A stretch of DNA of 64,000 nt, taken from positions 130,649-194,648 of the forward strand of contig VGJV01000001.1 of assembly GCA_016867315.1 (NCBI GenBank), given 5' to 3'. A model generated the notes under the pieces. That model saw nothing but the letters and a program-made list of their open reading frames with translations. It was not told the origin of the DNA and made no database searches. The DNA is from Candidatus Liptonbacteria bacterium. GTDB taxonomy: Bacteria > Patescibacteriota > Minisyncoccia > UBA6257 > 2-01-FULL-56-20. Shown here piece by piece: positions 17,459-62,397 of this stretch. The position numbers and the translations under genes were made by a program. Numbering within the stretch: position 1 is the first letter of the stretch; each line of letters opens with the position of its first letter.

Positions 17459-19138
17459 CTACCATACTAAAGGACCGGTGACTTCCTCCACCTCTTTAGG
17501 ACTCGTCACCCCCTGAATGATTTTAAGTATTCCGTCTTGCTGCATGGTTACCATCCCCTGTTGCTCGGCGAGTTTGGCGAGCACCGCTTCGGAAGCTTCT
17601 CCTATAATTACCTCTTCCAAATCCCGCCCTCCCCGGAAAAATTCAAATATTCCCACTCTGCCTTTATAGCCAAAGTGGTTGCATACCTCACATCCTACCG
17701 GCTCAAAGAGCGTCGGGATGGCGTATTGCACTCGCTCCACTCGCGTGGGCAATTTTTTTAAGAACGCCTCGATTCTTTTTTTGAGTTCCGGCGTGGGTTC
17801 CACTGGTTTTTTACACTTTCCGCATAATTTTCGCACTAGCCGTTGAGCGATCACGAGCGAAAGCGCCGCGCCGATAGTCGCGGGCTTCACTCCGAGATTT
17901 GCCAACCTCGGCACCGCCCCCACCGCATCGTTCGTGTGTAGCGTGCTCAAGACTAGATGGCCAGTAAGCGACGCTTGTAACGCGATATCGGCGGTTTCCG
18001 TATCCCGAATTTCTCCCACGAGGACTATATCCGGGTCCTGCCTTACGATCGCTCGAAGGCCGCTTGCGAATGTATACCCTGCTTCCGGGTCGACTTGAGT
18101 CTGCTCAATACCTTCGATGCGATACTCAATAGGATCTTCCACGGTAATAATTTTCATCTCCGGATCGTTCAACTTCCGCAAAAAAGCGTACAGGGTGGTG
18201 GTTTTCCCGGAGCCGGTCGGCCCGGTGTTCAGGATTAACCCATTGGGTTTCGCGAGTTCCGCATTCACAATTACGAGATCATCCGGACGCAAGCCCAGGG
18301 CCGCAAATTCCAAAGTAGTTTCTTTGGGATCGAGCACCCGCATTACCACTGCTTCTCCAAACTCAGAAGGGGCGATAGAAACCCGGATTTCAATGTCCTT
18401 ACCCTCGACACGCACCGTGAATCTCCCATCCTGGGCTTCGTCTCTCACATTAATCTTTAGACCCGAGAGCAACTTCAGACGAGAAAGAAGCGATTCATAA
18501 CTTTTTACCGGAATGGCAGTGGCCGCATCGTGAAGGCGCCCGTCGATGCGATACCGGAACTTGGCATCTTTTTCTTCGGCTTCGCAGTGAATGTCTGACG
18601 CTTCGTTCGCGAGTGCGCCCGCGAGAAGCATTTCCAAAAGATCTGTAGTGCTTGTTTGATGAAAATCTAATTTACCAAATGCATCGTGCACCACTTGGAA
18701 GCCTTTAAGCTTCCCCATAAGTTCCGCGAATCGCCCTCCCAAATCCACCTTCCCAGTTATGTCGTGGGCTTCTTTGGCCGCGAAGGAATACATGTGCCAG
18801 AGTTCCTTAATTCCAGATTGCGACCCTATCATCACTTTAAACGTGGGGAATTGCTTTTTTAATTCACTTAGCAGCGCTTCGGTCGCGGGAAGACGAGGGT
18901 CTACCACCGCAACCACGAGGGCTTTATCTGTTTTTTCGAGTCCTACCGCCTGCGCTTCTTCGGCGCGCGCCTTAGGAATCACCAATACTGCATCAAACGA
19001 AGTGGGGACTTTACTTACTTCCACGTATGGGTAGCCTAGTTCTTCCGCCATCCTTTTTGCCGCTCTTTCTTCCCCCTCTCGGCGGAGACGGAGAAGTTCT
19101 TCATTTAACGGGGTGGGAGCAGCGATACTCATTGTCAC
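17459..19138 (-). CDS. pilB: type II/IV secretion-system ATPase of the GspE/PilB family (type IV pilus assembly ATPase)
   Basis: LNTGPTGSGKTTTL Walker A, VEDPIEY, a tetracysteine motif CGKCKK…CEVCN, and an N-terminal GSPII_E_N-like region. Confidence 0.8.
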   Translation of the reverse strand: MTMSIAAPTPLNEELLRLRREGEERAAKRMAEELGYPYVEVSKVPTSFDAVLVIPKARAEEAQAVGLEKTDKALVVAVVDPRLPATEALLSELKKQFPTFKVMIGSQSGIKELWHMYSFAAKEAHDITGKVDLGGRFAELMGKLKGFQVVHDAFGKLDFHQTSTTDLLEMLLAGALANEASDIHCEAEEKDAKFRYRIDGRLHDAATAIPVKSYESLLSRLKLLSGLKINVRDEAQDGRFTVRVEGKDIEIRVSIAPSEFGEAVVMRVLDPKETTLEFAALGLRPDDLVIVNAELAKPNGLILNTGPTGSGKTTTLYAFLRKLNDPEMKIITVEDPIEYRIEGIEQTQVDPEAGYTFASGLRAIVRQDPDIVLVGEIRDTETADIALQASLTGHLVLSTLHTNDAVGAVPRLANLGVKPATIGAALSLVIAQRLVRKLCGKCKKPVEPTPELKKRIEAFLKKLPTRVERVQYAIPTLFEPVGCEVCNHFGYKGRVGIFEFFRGGRDLEEVIIGEASEAVLAKLAEQQGMVTMQQDGILKIIQGVTSPKEVEEVTGPLVW

Positions 19139-55346: not shown

Positions 55347-56609
55347 ATGGGAACCATGCGAAAAGCGGACGAGGCACGGATTGAGCAGCTCCTCACGCGC
55401 AATGTGGAGCACGTGATCGATAAGGGGCACCTCAAAGAGAAGCTTCGAAGTGGGAAGAAGCTGCGCATTAAATTAGGAATCGATCCTACTTCTCCTGATT
55501 TACACCTCGGGCACGCAGTCGTGCTCTGGAAGCTTCGCGAGTTTCAGGATTTAGGGCACACGATTGTCCTTATTATCGGAGATTTTACTGCCCAAGTCGG
55601 AGACCCTTCCGGGAAGACTCGTACGCGTCCACCGCTTACGGAGGCCGAGGTGAAGCGTAATATGAAAGATTATATTGCGCAGGCTTCGCGGGTGCTCAAC
55701 ATGAGAAAAGTAGAAATTCACTACAACAGTGAATGGCTCAAAAAATTGGATGGGAAAAAGATGTTGCAGCTCCTTGCCTCGCTCACTACGCAGCAGATTT
55801 TGGAACGAGAAGATTTTCAGAAGCGATTGGGAGCGAATCAACCGGTGCATCTTCATGAGCTTATTTACCCCGTACTTCAGGCGTATGATTCCGTAGCTAT
55901 CAAGGCAGATTTGGAATGTGGCGGGACGGATCAGCTCTTGAATTTGCTTGTGGGTAGAACTCTTATGGGAAGGAGAGAGCTGCCCCCGCAAGATGTGCTT
56001 ACCGTGCCTCTCCTTGAGGGGCTTGATGGGGTACGCAAGATGAGCAAGAGCCTCAAGAATTATATTTCTCTTTCCGAAGAACCCCACGAAATGTATGGGA
56101 AAGTTATGTCTATCCCCGATTCTCTTATTGTTAGGTATTTTTGGCTTACCACTGATGTGGCGGAACGGGAAATAAAGGATTTTGAATTCAAGCTTGCAAA
56201 TCGCCAGGTGAATCCCAAAGAAGTGAAATCTCGTTTGGCATTTGAAATCGTGCAACGCTATCACGGAGAAAAAGCGGCGCAGGCGGCGATCGAGCGCTTC
56301 GATACATTGTTTTCTAAGGGAGAATTGAGCGGGGAACTTCCCACGCTTGTGTTGCAAAGTGCGAAAGCTGCGGAAGCGGTGCCCGCGCTCGAAGCTGTAA
56401 AAATTCCCGCGGTAGAAATTGTTGTAGCTTCGAAGCTTGCGGAGAGTAAGAGTGAAGCTCGCAGACTTGTGCTTCAAGGGGGCCTGCGCGTAAACAATGC
56501 CGCTTATAAAAACCCTGCCGAGCTTGTATTTATACGCACGGGAGATGCGGTGAAAATCGGGAAACGGCATTTTTTCCGGGTAAAAGTAGAGTTTCAGCCC
56601 GGGGCTTGA
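55347..56609 (+). CDS. tyrS: tyrosine--tRNA ligase
   Basis: HIGH-like PDLHLGHAV, KMSKS motif present, C-terminal S4-like domain. Confidence 0.9.
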   Translation: MGTMRKADEARIEQLLTRNVEHVIDKGHLKEKLRSGKKLRIKLGIDPTSPDLHLGHAVVLWKLREFQDLGHTIVLIIGDFTAQVGDPSGKTRTRPPLTEAEVKRNMKDYIAQASRVLNMRKVEIHYNSEWLKKLDGKKMLQLLASLTTQQILEREDFQKRLGANQPVHLHELIYPVLQAYDSVAIKADLECGGTDQLLNLLVGRTLMGRRELPPQDVLTVPLLEGLDGVRKMSKSLKNYISLSEEPHEMYGKVMSIPDSLIVRYFWLTTDVAEREIKDFEFKLANRQVNPKEVKSRLAFEIVQRYHGEKAAQAAIERFDTLFSKGELSGELPTLVLQSAKAAEAVPALEAVKIPAVEIVVASKLAESKSEARRLVLQGGLRVNNAAYKNPAELVFIRTGDAVKIGKRHFFRVKVEFQPGA

Positions 56610-56656: not shown

Positions 56657-56727
56657 GCGGGTATCGTATAATGGCATTACCTCAGCTTTCCAAGCTGATG
56701 ACAGGGGTTCGATTCCCCTTACCCGCT
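56657..56727 (+). tRNA. tRNA-Gly (anticodon UCC)
   Basis: Manual cloverleaf: acceptor GCGGGTA/TACCCGC, anticodon stem TCAGC/GCTGA with loop TTTCCAA, T-arm AGGGG-TTCGATT-CCCCT, discriminator T. Confidence 0.7.
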
Positions 56728-56913
56728 CACTGAAATTAAAACGCTCATCGTAAGGTGGGTGTTTTAATTTTAGCTTGATGAGTAGGGGAATCGAACTAGC
56801 AGCGCCCCGTGTTGGAGAGCGTGGAGAACCAGAAGTGTCCGCCGCGATCGCGCGCGGACCTTTCACGGGATTGATTATTTTTGGGGGATACGGTACAAAG
56901 TCTACGTATAGAC

Positions 56914-57501: not shown

Positions 57502-57553
57502 CAGACTTTCGAACCTCTACTATGCTATAATTTAAGCATAGGTTGAAGGTTCT

Positions 57554-58222
57554 ATGGCTAAGAGAGCAGAGCAACAAATGGCTATTGAGTTGCGTAAACT
57601 CGGTAAGAGTTATCGAGAGATACGCAGCGTGTTAGGTGTGAGTAAAAGCACCTTGAGTTATTGGCTTCGTCCATTTCCTCTTTCTATGGAAAGATTACGA
57701 GAGGTTCGGGACTGGAATAGAAAAAGGATAGAAAATTATATTGCAACTCGTAGAAAGAAAAAGGAAGAGTTGTTGCATCAAATATATTCTGAGCAGGAGA
57801 AAGTTATTCTGCCTCTGAGTGACCGTGAACTCTTTTTAGGGGGACTTTTTCTTTACTGGGGAGAAGGCGCGAAATCGATGCGGGGAGAAATTTCGATTTC
57901 CAATACCAATCCGGGAATTATCAAGGCTTTTATACAGTGGGCGCAGCAGATTCTTAAGGTGGATCGCGGTCGTATTATTGTCAAACTACAGCTTTATTCT
58001 GATATGAATCCTCAAAAGGAAATGGGGATATGGGCGAAAGAGTTAGATATTCCTTTATCCCAATTTCGCTCTCCATATTTCAAAACCAGCAAATTTAATT
58101 CTCTTACTTACCGTAGGGGGTTCGGACATGGTACTTGCAATGTCTTTGTAAGAGATGCTACTTTAGCGAAGAAGGTTTTCATGGCATTGAAGGTTTTTGA
58201 AAATTACTTTAACGGCCTGTAG
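57554..58222 (+). CDS. N-terminal HTH plus LAGLIDADG-like endonuclease-fold protein; its 3' end overlaps the downstream tRNA by 10 nt
   Basis: HTH YREIRSVLGVSKSTLSYWLR; LAGLIDADG-like LFLGGLFLYWGEGAKS followed by ISISNTNPGIIKAFIQWAQQIL. Confidence 0.4.
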   Translation: MAKRAEQQMAIELRKLGKSYREIRSVLGVSKSTLSYWLRPFPLSMERLREVRDWNRKRIENYIATRRKKKEELLHQIYSEQEKVILPLSDRELFLGGLFLYWGEGAKSMRGEISISNTNPGIIKAFIQWAQQILKVDRGRIIVKLQLYSDMNPQKEMGIWAKELDIPLSQFRSPYFKTSKFNSLTYRRGFGHGTCNVFVRDATLAKKVFMALKVFENYFNGL

Positions 58223-58283
58223 CTCAATGGAAGAGCGGATGTCTTATACACTTCTGACGGAGGTTCGATTCCTCCCAGGCCGA
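58213..58283 (+). tRNA. tRNA with anticodon UAU (tRNA-Ile2-like)
   Basis: Manual fold: acceptor CGGCCTG/CAGGCCG, D-arm GCTC-AATGGAA-GAGC, anticodon stem GATGT/ACTTC (one U-U mismatch) with loop CTTATAC, T-arm GGAGG-TTCGATT-CCTCC, discriminator A. Confidence 0.55.
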
Positions 58284-58334
58284 CAGAGTATTTACTTTTA
58301 TTTCGCTCTAGCGAAGGCACGTGCACCACTATGT

Positions 58335-59666
58335 CTATCGAGACCATTTCAGCTCTTCGATTCGAGCGCGGATCGATTGCATCTGTTGCAGGAGAGAGTT
58401 TAGCCGAGCGCGGAGCACTTCGAGGGGGCTAGTTTGAGTTTCTGCATCTTCTTCTTCAACTTTCAAATCCTCGCTGTTCCACCAAGGTACTATAAGAAAG
58501 CCGTCATCGTCGAAGCGCAGCCCGGCGCCTTCCGCGCGGGCGGAGGGTATTCCCATATCCGAGAGGGAGGCGAGGAGGGAGCGTGCGGGTTTCTGTACTT
58601 GTTTTTGCGCGTTGCCTGCGATTTCAATTTCGTATCGAAAGTATTTCACTCCAGGAATGTCTGGGGTGACATTTTTCGAAGGCTCTTTCTTGCTTAATGG
58701 GATTAGCACTCGACAGTTTGCATCGAGTGACTTATTTCCAACGCGTATGGAAGCGCACGTCACCTGTTTTTCTTCTACCTCAAACATGGAATACCCGGAG
58801 AAAGGAAGGAGTTCATATGCTTTTACGGAAAGTGGCACGACCCACACAGGATTGGTTTTGAAAAGAATGTCTTCGCCTTTCTCTGTTATTTTTGCAGTAA
58901 TTCTCCCCGTAATAATTCCTCCATCTGGAGAGATTGCTCCCACCCCACCCTCAATGCATCCTTTTATAAGATCTCCAGGAAGTGTTTTGCACACTTCTTT
59001 CATAGTGCTCGGAATGATCTTTCGGGCTTCGGGGACTGTGAGGGTGAGGAGAGCGGCCGAATTTTCTACTACCGAGAACTTGGTGGACATTCCTGGGGTT
59101 TGGGTAATTGTTTCCCCTGTTCCTTTGTACGGTCTCATCTCGATATCTGGTTCGTCTTCGGCTTCTTTCCACCCGGAATCTGTACCCTTGGGACCGGTGC
59201 ACGATTTTCGTTCTTTATTTTCTTCCACAAAAATGTCTCCCTGAACTACTTTCACAAGACTTCGGATGGCGGAGAGAAATGTGTGCTCCTCGGTGCAAGA
59301 GTGAATCCCATAAGCCTTTTTCCACCATTGCTTGTAAAGGGTAACCTTCTTTGTGGAACTTTTTTCAAGAGGTGTTCTTTGTAAGAAGCCGGCACCGGGG
59401 ATTTGTCCTATAATTTCTTTTTTAATGAAGTTTCCTCTTGGGCTATACTCTTTTTTTATTTCTGTGTAGTAACTTTGGATAGAGTTACACATGTCACTTT
59501 CCTTGGAAGTGCAGGTGTAGGTAATTTGCTCCGTCTTTTTATACGAGGGATAAGAAATTATAGCTCCGAGGTCCGTCGCTTCTGCGTGGTATGGATTAAG
59601 ATAGAGGAGCCCACAAGTACTTATCACGCTCGCAAATAGGAGCGTGTTGCGTACCGATTTTTTCAT
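58335..59666 (-). CDS. secreted hypothetical protein (signal peptide, scattered Cys)
   Basis: N-terminal signal …LYLNPYHAEA; no family recognised. Confidence 0.35.
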   Translation of the reverse strand: MKKSVRNTLLFASVISTCGLLYLNPYHAEATDLGAIISYPSYKKTEQITYTCTSKESDMCNSIQSYYTEIKKEYSPRGNFIKKEIIGQIPGAGFLQRTPLEKSSTKKVTLYKQWWKKAYGIHSCTEEHTFLSAIRSLVKVVQGDIFVEENKERKSCTGPKGTDSGWKEAEDEPDIEMRPYKGTGETITQTPGMSTKFSVVENSAALLTLTVPEARKIIPSTMKEVCKTLPGDLIKGCIEGGVGAISPDGGIITGRITAKITEKGEDILFKTNPVWVVPLSVKAYELLPFSGYSMFEVEEKQVTCASIRVGNKSLDANCRVLIPLSKKEPSKNVTPDIPGVKYFRYEIEIAGNAQKQVQKPARSLLASLSDMGIPSARAEGAGLRFDDDGFLIVPWWNSEDLKVEEEDAETQTSPLEVLRARLNSLLQQMQSIRARIEELKWSR

Positions 59667-59688
59667 TCTTTCAGTATACCAAATCTTC

Positions 59689-61545
59689 CTACGCCCCCAC
59701 CGGTTTGATTTTGAAAGGCTTGAGGAGGCTCACAAATTCCTCTTGCTCCAGCGTTTCTCTTTCGATAAGTGCCCCCGCAATTGCTTTGAGGGCGGATTTA
59801 TGCGTACGGATCAATTTTTCCGCGGTGGTGTAAGCTCGCGCAATGAAGGATTTCACTTCTTCATCGATTTCCGCGGCTACTTTCTCCGAATAATCTTTTT
59901 CGGTGGCAATTTCTCTTCCCAGAAATATCATCTCTTCGGTTTTACCAAATGTTTGTGGGCCCAGTTTCTCGCTCATGCCATATCTCATTACCAGCCTTCT
60001 CGCGAGTTCGGTGGCTTGCTTCAGATCGCTCGAAGCGCCGGTGGAGACGTCTCCAAATGTAAGTTTTTCCGACACATAGCCGCCGAGCATCATGGCGAGA
60101 TCAGTCAAAAATTGCTGCCGCGTGCGGAGGTGCTGTTCTTCTATCGGCAGTTTCATCGTGTATCCTCCGGCAGTGCCTCGGCTGATAATCGAAACTTTGT
60201 GTATGGGATCCGCGTTTTTCAAGGAAGCGGCGGTTAACGCATGCCCGGCTTCGTGATATGCCGTAATTTCTTTTTCTCGGGGAGAAATGGCTCGGCTTTT
60301 CCGTTCCGGTCCTAGGAGGACCTTTTCCACGGAGCTGAAGAGATCTTCTTGAGTCACTTGTTTCTTATTTTGGCGGGCGGCAAGAATAGCAGCTTCATTC
60401 ATGAGATTCGCGATATCTGCGCCGGAGAAACCCGGAGTGCGAACTGCCACTTTGCGGAGATCTACCTCCGGAACAATCGCTTTGCCTCGCGCATGAATTT
60501 TTAGAATTTCTTCGCGGTCGTTCAAGTCGGGGAGATCCAAAATTACTCGACGGTCAAAGCGGCCTGGGCGGAGGAGAGCGGGGTCTAAAATATCGGGTCT
60601 GTTCGTCGCAGCGAGGACAATTACGCGAGTTTCGCGATCGAAGCCGTCCAGTTCCACGAGGATCTGGTTTAAGGTTTGTTCCCGTTCGTCGTTCCCGCCA
60701 CCGAGGCCGGCGCCACGCTGACGGCCTACCGCGTCTATTTCATCGATAAAAAGAATGGCCGGAGCGGCTTTCTTTGCGACTGCAAAGGCATCGCGTGTGC
60801 GGGAAGCTCCTACTCCTACAAAAAGTTCTACAAACTCAGAAGCAGATATATAGAAGAAGGGAACATTCGATTCGCCGGCGACTGCTCGCGCAATAAGGGT
60901 TTTGCCGGTGCCGGGAGGGCCCATGAGGAGTACGCCACGAGGAATTCTGGCGCCGAGATCCAAAAACTTTTTAGGGTTCTTCAAAAAATCTACAATTTCT
61001 ACTAGTTCTTCTTTGGCTTCTTTGAGGCCCGCCACGTCCTTAAAGGTAACCTTCTCTTTCTCAAAGGTGGTGAGGCGAATATTCGAGCGGCCGAAGCTGA
61101 AGGCTTGATTGGCTCCGCTTCTCGCCTGACGGAACATAAGCCAGAAGAAAAAGCCGATCGCGAGAATAGGAAGCAGCGTGGGGATCAAGATGCCTGCCCA
61201 GAATTGCCAACCGGAAGGGCTTTGCACCGCCATATTCACTTTTTGCAAAGCTTCCGGAGCTACTCCTAGATTTTTGAATGTCTCGGTAAATCCTGCCTCG
61301 GTTTCTTTTTTGGAGTAGGCGGTTTTATCATTTTGGAGTTTTACTACGAGATCATCTCCGTTCACTGTTACTTCTTTTACTTCTCCGGCGGCGATTTTTT
61401 GCGCGAGTTGGCTCAAACTCAATTTTTCCGGGGCAGGGGAATTCGCTCCAAAAAGCGAGAACAGAAACGAAATAAGTACTAAGGTGAGAAACGCCCAGGC
61501 GATATTTTTAAAGATATTGGACATATTGGAAGTGTTTTGATTCAT
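59689..61545 (-). CDS. ftsH: ATP-dependent zinc metalloprotease FtsH
   Basis: AAA motifs [17 protein letters not shown] and zinc motif HEAGHAL. The first ATG is 9 codons inside the track ORF, which begins at TTG 61572. Confidence 0.9.
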
Positions 61546-61592
61546 TTCAGCATAGTAAAAAAGAACGCTCAAGTCAAAGAAAATTTTTGTTT

Positions 61593-61608
61593 GGGTGACG
61601 CGTCACCC
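61593..61608. promoter_or_regulatory. perfect 16-bp palindrome GGGTGACGCGTCACCC upstream of the ftsH promoter region
   Basis: Read directly. A TTGACT-14-TACTAT promoter-like element on the minus strand ends 6 nt before the ftsH ATG. Confidence 0.3.
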
Positions 61609-61747
61609 TGATTAAATCTTCTTATTGTGGAGCTTTAGAGATGGTTATTGTATTAAGAAAACGAAGGTTTGGTTTAGTATTTGTTTTAATTTTGGCTATC
61701 CACAGAACGGATAGTTTACCTTATAAAAATAGATTTATAATTTAATT

Positions 61748-62242
61748 ATGCCGATTGTTTCCTGCAAAATCTGCAAAACAAAATTTTATGCGAAGCCTTT
61801 TTGGGTCGCGCGAGGTTTTGGGAAGTATTGTTCGGCAAATTGCCAACACATCGGAAGAAGGAATGGACGAATCGTGCTTTGTGAGATTTGTGGCAAGGAA
61901 GTTTATAAGCCAGGGAGAGCATTGAGACATTCGAAAAGTGGAAAACATTTTTGCGGTAGATCCTGCCAGACAAAATGGAGGAATATTGTTTTTGTGGGCA
62001 AGAGACATGCAAATTGGAGAACGGGACGGTTTGCTTATAAAACTGTTCTGCGGCGTCATAAAATCCCGGAAATATGTGGACTTTGTCGCACGAAAGATGG
62101 GAGAGTCTTGGCAACTCACCATATCGATGGTAATAATAAGAACCACTCCTTAAAGAATCTTATGTGGCTTTGTCATAATTGCCATTTTTTGATTCATCAT
62201 TATGATGAGGAGCGGAAGAAGCTTATGGTGCCCATAGTGTAA
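61748..62242 (+). CDS. HNH endonuclease with N-terminal zinc-ribbon repeats; its last 16 nt overlap the 5' end of tRNA-His
   Basis: HHIDGNNKNHSLKNLMWLCHNCHFLIHH HNH motif and CxxC…CxxC pairs. Confidence 0.7.
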   Translation: MPIVSCKICKTKFYAKPFWVARGFGKYCSANCQHIGRRNGRIVLCEICGKEVYKPGRALRHSKSGKHFCGRSCQTKWRNIVFVGKRHANWRTGRFAYKTVLRRHKIPEICGLCRTKDGRVLATHHIDGNNKNHSLKNLMWLCHNCHFLIHHYDEERKKLMVPIV

Positions 62243-62298
62243 CGGCAACACTAGAGTTTGTGGAACTCTCATTACGGGTTCGAATCCCGTTGGGCACC
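62227..62298 (+). tRNA. tRNA-His (anticodon GUG) with encoded G-1
   Basis: Manual fold: G-1 paired to C73, acceptor GTGCCCA/TGGGCAC, D-arm GTGT-AACGGCA-ACAC, anticodon stem AGAGT/ACTCT with loop TTGTGGA, T-arm ACGGG-TTCGAAT-CCCGT. Confidence 0.7.
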
Positions 62299-62397
62299 CA
62301 TGAATACGAAGTCGAATACTTGCCAGGTATGCCACGGGAGTCTTGTATCGGCAATATTGATTCGAGCCATAAAATCTTTATTCTAGAGATAACCGAT

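Follow-up and report, generated by a model that had tools for sequence, protein, structure and literature searches.

Why would two endonuclease-like genes of one genome each end within the first bases of a tRNA gene? The question arises in a 64,000-nucleotide stretch from a Candidatus Liptonbacteria bacterium (Patescibacteria; contig VGJV01000001.1, positions 130,649 to 194,648), hereafter called the window, in which all coordinates are counted from its first letter. An original prediction, made from the letters of this stretch, had described one open reading frame (ORF1) that runs 10 nt into tRNA-Ile(UAU) and a second one (ORF2) that runs 16 nt into tRNA-His, each on the same strand as its tRNA. 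Comparison with related loci makes it likely that both ORFs, which are unrelated to each other, are free-standing homing-endonuclease cassettes, each inserted directly 5' of one chromosomal tRNA gene. The features on which the argument leans are as follows.

56657-56728, + strand: tRNA-Gly(UCC), found by ARAGORN; Rfam tRNA model 64 bits, with the same 5' end
57503-57553, + strand: ORF1 leader, with a -10 box, a hairpin and a Shine-Dalgarno sequence
57554-58222, + strand: ORF1, 222 aa, with a helix-turn-helix (HTH) and a putative divergent single LAGLIDADG-type domain
58213-58283, + strand: tRNA-Ile(UAU), Rfam 66 bits; ARAGORN places its end at 58284
61699-61747, + strand: ORF2 promoter region, with a TCCACA motif, a -35-like element and a -10 box
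61748-62242, + strand: ORF2, 164 aa, with two zinc-ribbon-like modules and an HNH core
62228-62298, + strand: tRNA-His(GUG), or 62227-62298 with the encoded G-1; Rfam 60 bits; ARAGORN places its end at 62299

These three tRNA genes are the ones that ARAGORN finds in the window, and the Rfam tRNA model gives them identical 5' ends. The stop codon of ORF1 (TAG, 58220-58222) is U8-A9-G10 of tRNA-Ile(UAU), and tRNA positions 1-10 (58213-58222) overlap the final three sense codons of ORF1 along with its stop. The stop codon of ORF2 (TAA, 62240-62242) is made of tRNA-His positions 13-15. This overlap measures 15 nt from 62228 and 16 nt with G-1, for position 62227 is a G that can pair with C73; the bases 62227-62242 serve both tRNA-His and the ORF2 codons M-V-P-I-V-stop. 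With both predictors, then, the tRNA 5' ends lie upstream of the ORF stops, and the overlaps of 10 and 16 nt on a shared strand (+) stand as first described. The G+C content of both ORFs is ~8-10 points below that of their flanks.

Attachment of two protein families to two tRNA genes

In many genomes, each of the two protein families keeps to a single tRNA species. The homology search gave 2331 homologues of ORF1, which among the matches listed are ~220 aa long with 48-73% identity; the named ones among these matches come from Patescibacteria (Giovannoni-, Lipton-, Wolfe-, Nealson- and Falkowbacteria). For ORF2 there were 120 homologues of ~165 aa, and the matches listed for both proteins are near full length. 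Gene neighbourhoods were taken from 80 GTDB genome loci with ORF1 homologues and from 80 metagenome loci for ORF2 (loci are cited below by L numbers), all scanned by ARAGORN and tblastn. The next same-strand feature after the ORF1 homologue is tRNA-Ile(UAU) in 76 of 76 evaluable loci, and tRNA-His(GUG) follows the ORF2 homologue in 72 of 80. The exceptions in the ORF2 set are mostly contig ends. Others are L112 (3001-3669) and L149 (251-832), where the frame of the homologue reads through the whole tRNA-His, and L146, where the HNH gene lies just after tRNA-His; on the near-identical contig L147 ARAGORN finds no tRNA. Some copies look degenerate, for example a frameshifted ORF1-like gene before tRNA-Gly(GCC) in L023 (3208-3854) and the read-through frames of L112 and L149, which fits the decay phase of the homing-endonuclease life cycle.

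The same tRNA genes also occur without the cassettes. For a sample drawn from the tRNA side, rplS served as a neutral anchor and yielded nine lineages with a shared gene order (gyrA...S1...ftsH-tRNA-Ile(UAU)-tRNA-Val-rluA-rplS-tRNA-Leu-Val-Phe-Gly). All nine carry tRNA-Ile(UAU) and one of them carries ORF1 (L164-166); ORF1 is missing before tRNA-Ile in L161, L167, L170 and L172-175. In L161, L167 and L170 the tRNA starts 5-9 nt past the ftsH stop, and alignment reveals a clean block of ~760 nt, made up of leader and ORF1, that separates the ftsH stop from position +1 of tRNA-Ile. Likewise, L009 has the arrangement of the window (tRNA-Gly(UCC), ORF1-tRNA-Ile, ftsH divergent from tRNA-His) without ORF2, with a spacer of ~170 nt where the window has ORF2, and L172 has tRNA-Arg(UCU)-tRNA-His without ORF2. 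Both ORFs are thus seen present and absent at orthologous tRNA loci: the cassettes are optional, and the junction that they occupy is fixed, within 0-15 nt of tRNA position +1. The earlier suggestion of selfish genes parked at tRNA loci agrees with such optional insertions at fixed sites (L161-L175 and L009). Since tRNA-Ile and tRNA-His are found without cassettes, neither the ORF1 nor the ORF2 protein is needed for its tRNA.

The tRNA-Ile(UAU) gene itself has no encoded CCA. A tRNA-Ile with the UAU anticodon is present in the window and in nine of nine sampled lineages of the candidate phyla radiation (CPR). In most bacteria, according to a passage in PMC3575796, AUA is decoded by tRNA-Ile2(CAU) modified by TilS. 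This suggests that the clade uses the rare UAU solution for AUA decoding.

The overlap is less constant than the linkage. ORF1 homologues overlap the tRNA in 36 of 76 loci, in 33 of these by exactly 10 nt, and the other 40 have their own stop upstream of the tRNA at gaps mostly <=15 nt; ORF2 homologues overlap it in 53 of 72 loci, in 50 by exactly 15 nt, and 19 stop upstream of it at gaps of 2-26 nt. The lengths are fixed because the tRNA bases concerned are near-invariant: U8-A9-G10 reads as UAG and, in another frame, N13-A14-R15 reads as UAA or UAG. The ORF extends to the first in-frame stop, which is often supplied by tRNA bases. The C-termini of the ORF2 family, mostly [FL]M-x-x-[ILMV]-[VA], mirror the tRNA 5' sequence, and those of the ORF1 family, often ...GQ, ...GL or ...GPVA, follow it as well. 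Housekeeping genes behave similarly: rplS extends into tRNA-Leu by 10 nt (L039, L065) or 21 nt (L027), and rbfA into tRNA-Cys by 10 nt. Because these genes overlap tRNAs in the same way, the overlap is not special to endonuclease genes; it is a by-product of genome compaction, and the conserved trait is tight abutment to the tRNA. The recurring strategy that was surmised for such genes therefore holds for the insertion pattern (76/76, 72/80) and not for the overlap as an expression strategy, given rplS, rbfA and the roughly half of ORF1 and quarter of ORF2 homologues that stop upstream.

A different view of the same overlap is that the stop within the tRNA was selected as a control device, in which RNase P cleavage creates a non-stop mRNA whose product is tagged by transfer-messenger RNA (tmRNA). 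The constancy of the overlap in 33/36 and 50/53 overlapping loci would suit it, and the same idea was put forward for segB of phage T4 (PMC2330249). We consider it rather unlikely, as 40/76 ORF1 and 19/72 ORF2 loci bring their own upstream stop, rplS and rbfA show the same 10-nt overlap, and a fixed length follows from the invariant U8-A9-G10 and A14 in any case.

The two proteins and other nucleases at tRNA genes

By motif and by curated family model, ORF2 is an HNH endonuclease, in agreement with the first assignment. Two TRASH/zinc-ribbon-like CxxC...C...C modules (residues 6-32 and 45-73) precede an HNH (His-Me finger) core at residues 110-150 (nt 62075-62197), and C110, C113, H124, H125, N137, C142, C145, H146 and H150 are invariant in 22 homologues (CxxC...HH...N...CxxCH...H). 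The protein matches PHROG 1271 'HNH endonuclease' over residues 5-159 (E=7e-18). Its profile finds in the PDB the HNH domains of group II intron maturase and IscB (E ~0.002), the NCBIfam IscB model matches weakly (5.5e-4), and the Pfam HNH models give no match at E<0.1. Over 66 aa the core shares 41% identity with HNH genes from T4-like phages annotated as T5 TflIV-like, and the N-terminal zinc-ribbon modules match only other phage HNH proteins, at ~30% identity.

The assignment of ORF1 is less direct. Its N-terminal HTH (residues 2-39), which had been predicted, stands; it is followed by a long helix and then by a domain that is likely to be a divergent single-motif LAGLIDADG domain, a part of the prediction that only barely holds. 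The motif GLFLYWGEGAK occupies residues 97-107 (nt 57842-57874). Among 85 superfamily sequences of 25-50% identity, G97, Y101, E104 and K107 are conserved at >=90% and G105 is invariant. The profile of these 85 members matches I-DmoI, an archaeal LAGLIDADG enzyme (PDB 1b24, 2vs7), over I-DmoI residues 82-149 (E=4.7e-5). In this alignment LYWGEGxK of ORF1 falls on LYVAEGDK, the second LAGLIDADG motif of I-DmoI, and E104 and K107 fall on the Glu and Lys of AEGDK, which are active-site residues of I-DmoI. Unlike I-DmoI, a monomer with two motifs whose gene lies in an rRNA intron, ORF1 has one motif and carries, besides, an HTH at its N-terminus and an additional helix inserted between strands 3 and 4. 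Since there is only one motif, ORF1 probably acts as a dimer.

The AlphaFold models (predicted local distance difference test, pLDDT, 90.7 and 94) have the order helix, hairpin, helix, strand, extra helix, strand, helix, and the motif lies at the C-terminal end of the modelled helix 90-102 with a beta-hairpin next to it. Against viral models, the best Foldseek match of ORF1 is a "homing endonuclease" (probability 0.99, TM 0.42), with several intein-bearing proteins besides, all weak. For the C-terminal domain, no nuclease match was found in NCBIfam, PHROGs or the family-level PDB profile search, Foldseek gave no match in the PDB, and hhalign of the ORF1 family against the canonical LAGLIDADG family gave a probability of 0.3-2%. 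The 76 aligned family members are uniform in length at ~220 aa. The superfamily comprises 5967 representative clusters (50% identity clusters, E<=1e-3), none with a nuclease annotation. Its long members have extra HTH copies only and no informative domain, and a search for relatives in phages found none at E<=1e-3.

Insertion next to a tRNA gene is not confined to these two families. Distant paralogues of ORF1, 25-38% identical to it and alike in length and HTH, immediately precede tRNA-Arg(UCU), Arg(CCU), Phe(GAA), Gly(UCC), Gly(GCC), a CAU tRNA and tRNA-Ala(GGC). For example, tRNA-Gly(UCC), which is cassette-free in the window (the tyrosyl-tRNA synthetase gene ends at 56609 and no endonuclease ORF is associated with the tRNA), is preceded by an ORF1 paralogue in other genomes. 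A third family, which passes the Pfam LAGLIDADG_3 threshold, stands between rplS and tRNA-Leu(GAG) in 9/43 loci of the two sets above and in L173, and in most of the remaining tRNA-Leu(GAG) loci rplS is directly upstream of the tRNA. Usual tRNA neighbours (Val-Phe, Phe-Gly, Arg-His) are split by such ORFs in a minority of genomes. Elsewhere in the same loci an ORF ending at a tRNA 5' end is rare (Val-GAC 2/31, Val-UAC 2/29). Such sporadic and site-specific spread is the behaviour of homing-endonuclease genes. Three remote superfamily members were checked: one has a tRNA near it (L178, 76 nt before tRNA-Gly(GCC)), and the contigs of the other two are too short. The 5' side of the tRNA is usual and not obligatory, as the LAGLIDADG gene of L172 and the HNH gene of L146 lie 3'.

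Several observations were made alongside. In L178 an 80-aa GIY-YIG ORF (2414-2656) follows tRNA-Gly(GCC), downstream of the ORF1-like gene between tRNA-Phe and tRNA-Gly, and may represent a fourth nuclease family at tRNA genes. The LAGLIDADG ORF of L172 (11882-12535, - strand) is downstream of tRNA-Leu(UAA). Inteins are present in gyrA in two lineages and in ftsH of L172, the latter with a LAGLIDADG_3 domain (L161-L163, 1-4024; L172, 1-594 and 6504-9797); homing elements are abundant in the sampled CPR genomes. In L171 (4074-5482) a bAvd gene adjoins a reverse transcriptase gene (RVT_1), and the pair looks like a diversity-generating retroelement. At ~18770-18965 (- strand) of L172, 23 nt from the 3' end of tRNA-Arg(UCU) (TTCGATTCTTCCCAGGGGCACAA) recur ~100 nt downstream of this tRNA, in the spacer before tRNA-His, which looks like a footprint of integration or excision. 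In the window itself, the 3' part of tRNA-Gly(UCC) has an inverted partial copy that lies 50-90 nt further downstream (GGGGAATCGAAC); the two form a 41-nt inverted repeat (73% complementary, 56707-56796), which might act as a long terminator-like hairpin or be left over from a rearrangement.

Expression signals, mechanism and rival explanations

Each cassette has its own predicted promoter. In the ORF1 leader an extended -10 box, TGCTATAAT (57523-57531), lies inside a predicted hairpin (~57511-57552) whose 3' arm covers the Shine-Dalgarno sequence GAAGG (57545-57549); the fold in the window has -17.4 kcal/mol and z=-3.1. Leaders of ORF1 homologues share a TAWAAT box abutting GAAC plus GGTTCAATT before the ATG in 46 of 76 cases, compared with 0.4 in shuffles. 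Helix 1 of this hairpin was used to select sequences, and helix 2, the inner stem, is the sole independent test of pairing. Here 89% of cells are paired versus 79.5% in shuffles, with 0 of 500 shuffles reaching 89%; the covariation score is 0.36 versus 0.20, and slid controls give 20-50% pairing. The inner-stem sequence varies among genomes and the pairing is kept.

The promoter of ORF2 is of another kind, with TCCACA (61699-61704), a -35-like GTTTAC (61714-61719) and a -10 box TATAAT (61736-61741). The mRNA of ORF2 is predicted to be leaderless, because the -10 box ends 6 nt before the ATG and there is no Shine-Dalgarno sequence. A TAnnnT ending 5-7 nt before the start codon is found in 54/75 ORF2 loci (shuffles 7.7+-2.6), and TCCACA(G/A) at ~-51, ~10 nt upstream of the -35 region, in 40/75 (shuffles 0.9). 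This second motif could be an operator, an UP-like element or a cassette border. No significant fold was detected in the ORF2 leaders (mean z -0.75).

A candidate internal promoter for tRNA-His within the 3' part of ORF2, TTGCCA-N16-TATGAT (62179-62206), was made attractive by a similar element in the cassette-free L009. It was rejected, as it occurs in 35/73 loci versus 30.7+-3.3 in synonymous shuffles and results from the codon sequence for the NCHFLVHHYD motif. Similarly, no selected internal promoter before tRNA-Ile was found in ORF1 (12/77 versus 8.4+-2.1 in synonymous shuffles), and in cassette-free genomes there is no room for a promoter between ftsH and tRNA-Ile. As neither tRNA is preceded by a selected promoter, co-transcription with the ORF is the simplest reading.

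If ORF1 and ORF2 are homing-endonuclease cassettes, the enzyme would cut alleles that lack the cassette, in the tRNA gene or close to it, and repair by recombination would copy the cassette in; the conserved tRNA gene would offer a target common to distant genomes. The tRNA would be co-transcribed with the ORF and freed by RNase P, and in overlapping alleles this release would strip the stop codon and so limit enzyme output. RNase P maturation and selfish genes, which had been offered as alternatives, are not exclusive; for T4 segB, co-transcription followed by RNase P release is an established design (PMC2330249). Only RNA started at the promoter of the cassette would be translated. In the case of ORF1, such transcripts would lack the 5' arm of the hairpin and be translatable, while read-through RNA would hide the ribosome-binding site; for ORF2, the own transcript would be a leaderless mRNA, and read-through RNA would have no Shine-Dalgarno sequence to use.

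Several points count against this interpretation. The loci were picked by protein similarity, and the linkage is thus seen from the protein side only. Prevalence comes from few lineages, with ORF1 in 1/9 and ORF2 in 0/2 incidental tRNA-His loci. For ORF1, Pfam gives no LAGLIDADG match even with 76 family members at E<=1, and the nuclease domain amounts to one profile match (E=4.7e-5) and weak fold matches (TM ~0.42). The idea that tRNA changes confer immunity was rejected, as tRNA-Ile alleles with and without ORF1 are not systematically different. The test for horizontal transfer is weak (ORF1 versus rplS distances, r=0.19, Mantel p=0.064). Lastly, the mean identity of ORF1 (59.7%) is on a par with that of ribosomal protein L19 (60.2%), which is unusual for a purely selfish gene and leaves some room for a host-beneficial role. 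As for exchange between genomes, one close pair has a local dip in identity over the 5' half of ORF1, with a second dip elsewhere in the same locus.

This conservation would fit the reading that ORF1 and ORF2 are domesticated DNA-binding proteins, i.e., host regulators or insulators of tRNA transcription units that are no longer mobile nucleases. WhiA, a transcription factor made of a LAGLIDADG domain plus an HTH, offers a parallel; the HTH of ORF1, the uniform ~220 aa of its 76 aligned members and a conserved palindromic leader that overlaps the promoter and might be an operator all point the same way. However, a host regulator would have to be reconciled with the lack of ORF1 in 8/9 syntenic lineages that keep the tRNA, with the retention of the putative catalytic E104 and K107 at >=90% in the 85-sequence alignment, and with the sporadic presence of bona fide HNH and LAGLIDADG_3 families in the same niche. 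The inner stem of the leader, which changes sequence and keeps pairing, argues for an RNA structure rather than an operator. Domestication is accordingly judged improbable.

Still less probable, in our estimate, is spread by site-specific recombination or transposition instead of homing, in which case ORF1 would be a small transposase- or integrase-like protein directed at tRNA genes, a habit of many integrative elements. Such genes are classic sites of integration, the HTH of ORF1 resembles those of transposases and resolvases (HTH_23, HTH_SB, HTH_7, IS630), and L172 has the 23-nt duplicate of a tRNA-Arg 3' end. Yet the insertions are at the 5' end of the tRNA and not at the 3' end, and in the window ORF1 and ORF2 are bordered by neither target-site duplications nor terminal repeats, inverted or direct, short chance repeats apart. 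Pfam, PDB and fold searches found no DDE, serine or tyrosine recombinase domain, and the C-terminal domain of ORF1 matches I-DmoI instead. That the ORFs are not genes, or the tRNA borders wrong, is a negligible prospect: the ORFs were listed mechanically, but 2331 and 120 homologues (near full length among the matches listed), 5967 ORF1 superfamily clusters, two concurring tRNA predictors and pLDDT values of 90.7 and 94 contradict it.

Phage precedents and meaning for Patescibacteria

The proposed mechanism is of a known kind, with precedents in phages T4 (segB) and T5 (F-Tfl). SegB of T4 is a free-standing GIY-YIG homing endonuclease whose gene sits within the T4 tRNA cluster and is missing in related genomes (Brok-Volchanskaya et al., 2008; PMC2330249). 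The gene is co-transcribed with the tRNAs, processing of tRNA-Arg cuts between its last sense codon and its stop, and the SegB recognition site includes the conserved tRNA T-psi-C motif (PMC2330249). A predicted hairpin sequesters the ribosome-binding site of segB, which has no promoter of its own at this hairpin (PMC2330249). The same processing idea is cited for F-TflI, II and IV of T5, whose enzymes are likewise encoded in a tRNA cluster, and the genes for I-TevI, II, III and MobE of T4 have promoters at the sequestering hairpin (PMC2330249).

Like segB and the F-Tfl genes, ORF1 and ORF2 precede a tRNA on the same strand and stop at or inside it. The differences lie in the nuclease (GIY-YIG in SegB; HNH in ORF2 and LAGLIDADG-type in ORF1), in the location (a phage genome for segB; a bacterial chromosome, beside essential single-copy tRNA genes, for ORF1 and ORF2), in the attachment of each subfamily to one tRNA species in hundreds of genomes, and in the predicted promoter of the ORF1 cassette at its hairpin, which segB does not have. 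As in I-TevI and MobE of T4, the -10 box of ORF1 abuts or lies in the hairpin and the 3' arm lies over the Shine-Dalgarno sequence. In T4 the hairpin sets early versus late timing in infection, whereas that of ORF1 would insulate the cassette from read-through of host operons. For ORF2, a close likeness is the TflIV-like HNH gene of phage ACG-C40, whose end lies 7 nt upstream of tRNA-Leu, the first gene of a same-strand cluster of ten tRNAs. In contrast to the T5 TflIV-like enzymes, with which similarity is limited to the HNH core, ORF2 has a cellular host, and it is linked strictly to tRNA-His instead of a tRNA cluster.

A broader proposal is put forward tentatively, with somewhat more doubt than trust: ORF1 may belong to an unrecognised radiation of HTH-LAGLIDADG homing endonucleases (~6000 clusters), each subfamily on one tRNA gene (Ile-UAU, Arg-UCU, Arg-CCU, Phe, Gly-UCC, Gly-GCC, CAU, Ala-GGC). 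If so, and with the HNH and classical LAGLIDADG families taking part, tRNA genes might be the chief places of homing in CPR bacteria, and these enzymes might promote gene conversion as well as the horizontal exchange of tRNA genes and adjoining DNA among distant lineages.

In the literature searched on homing endonucleases and tRNA in CPR/Patescibacteria, no description of such an arrangement was found. What would be new is the setting, a cellular chromosome and essential tRNA genes, where a few phage cases (T4 segB, T5 F-Tfl) were known previously; the involvement of three or more nuclease families, each tRNA species having its own subfamily; and a large ORF1 superfamily without nuclease annotation. 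The latter would account for many proteins recorded as "helix-turn-helix domain-containing" or "hypothetical" in CPR annotations, and would provide a natural set of related LAGLIDADG-type proteins with differing, guessable targets, namely tRNA genes. In compact CPR genomes, co-transcripts of mRNA and tRNA with shared bases may be routine, and the sporadic cassettes could mark recombination between CPR lineages.

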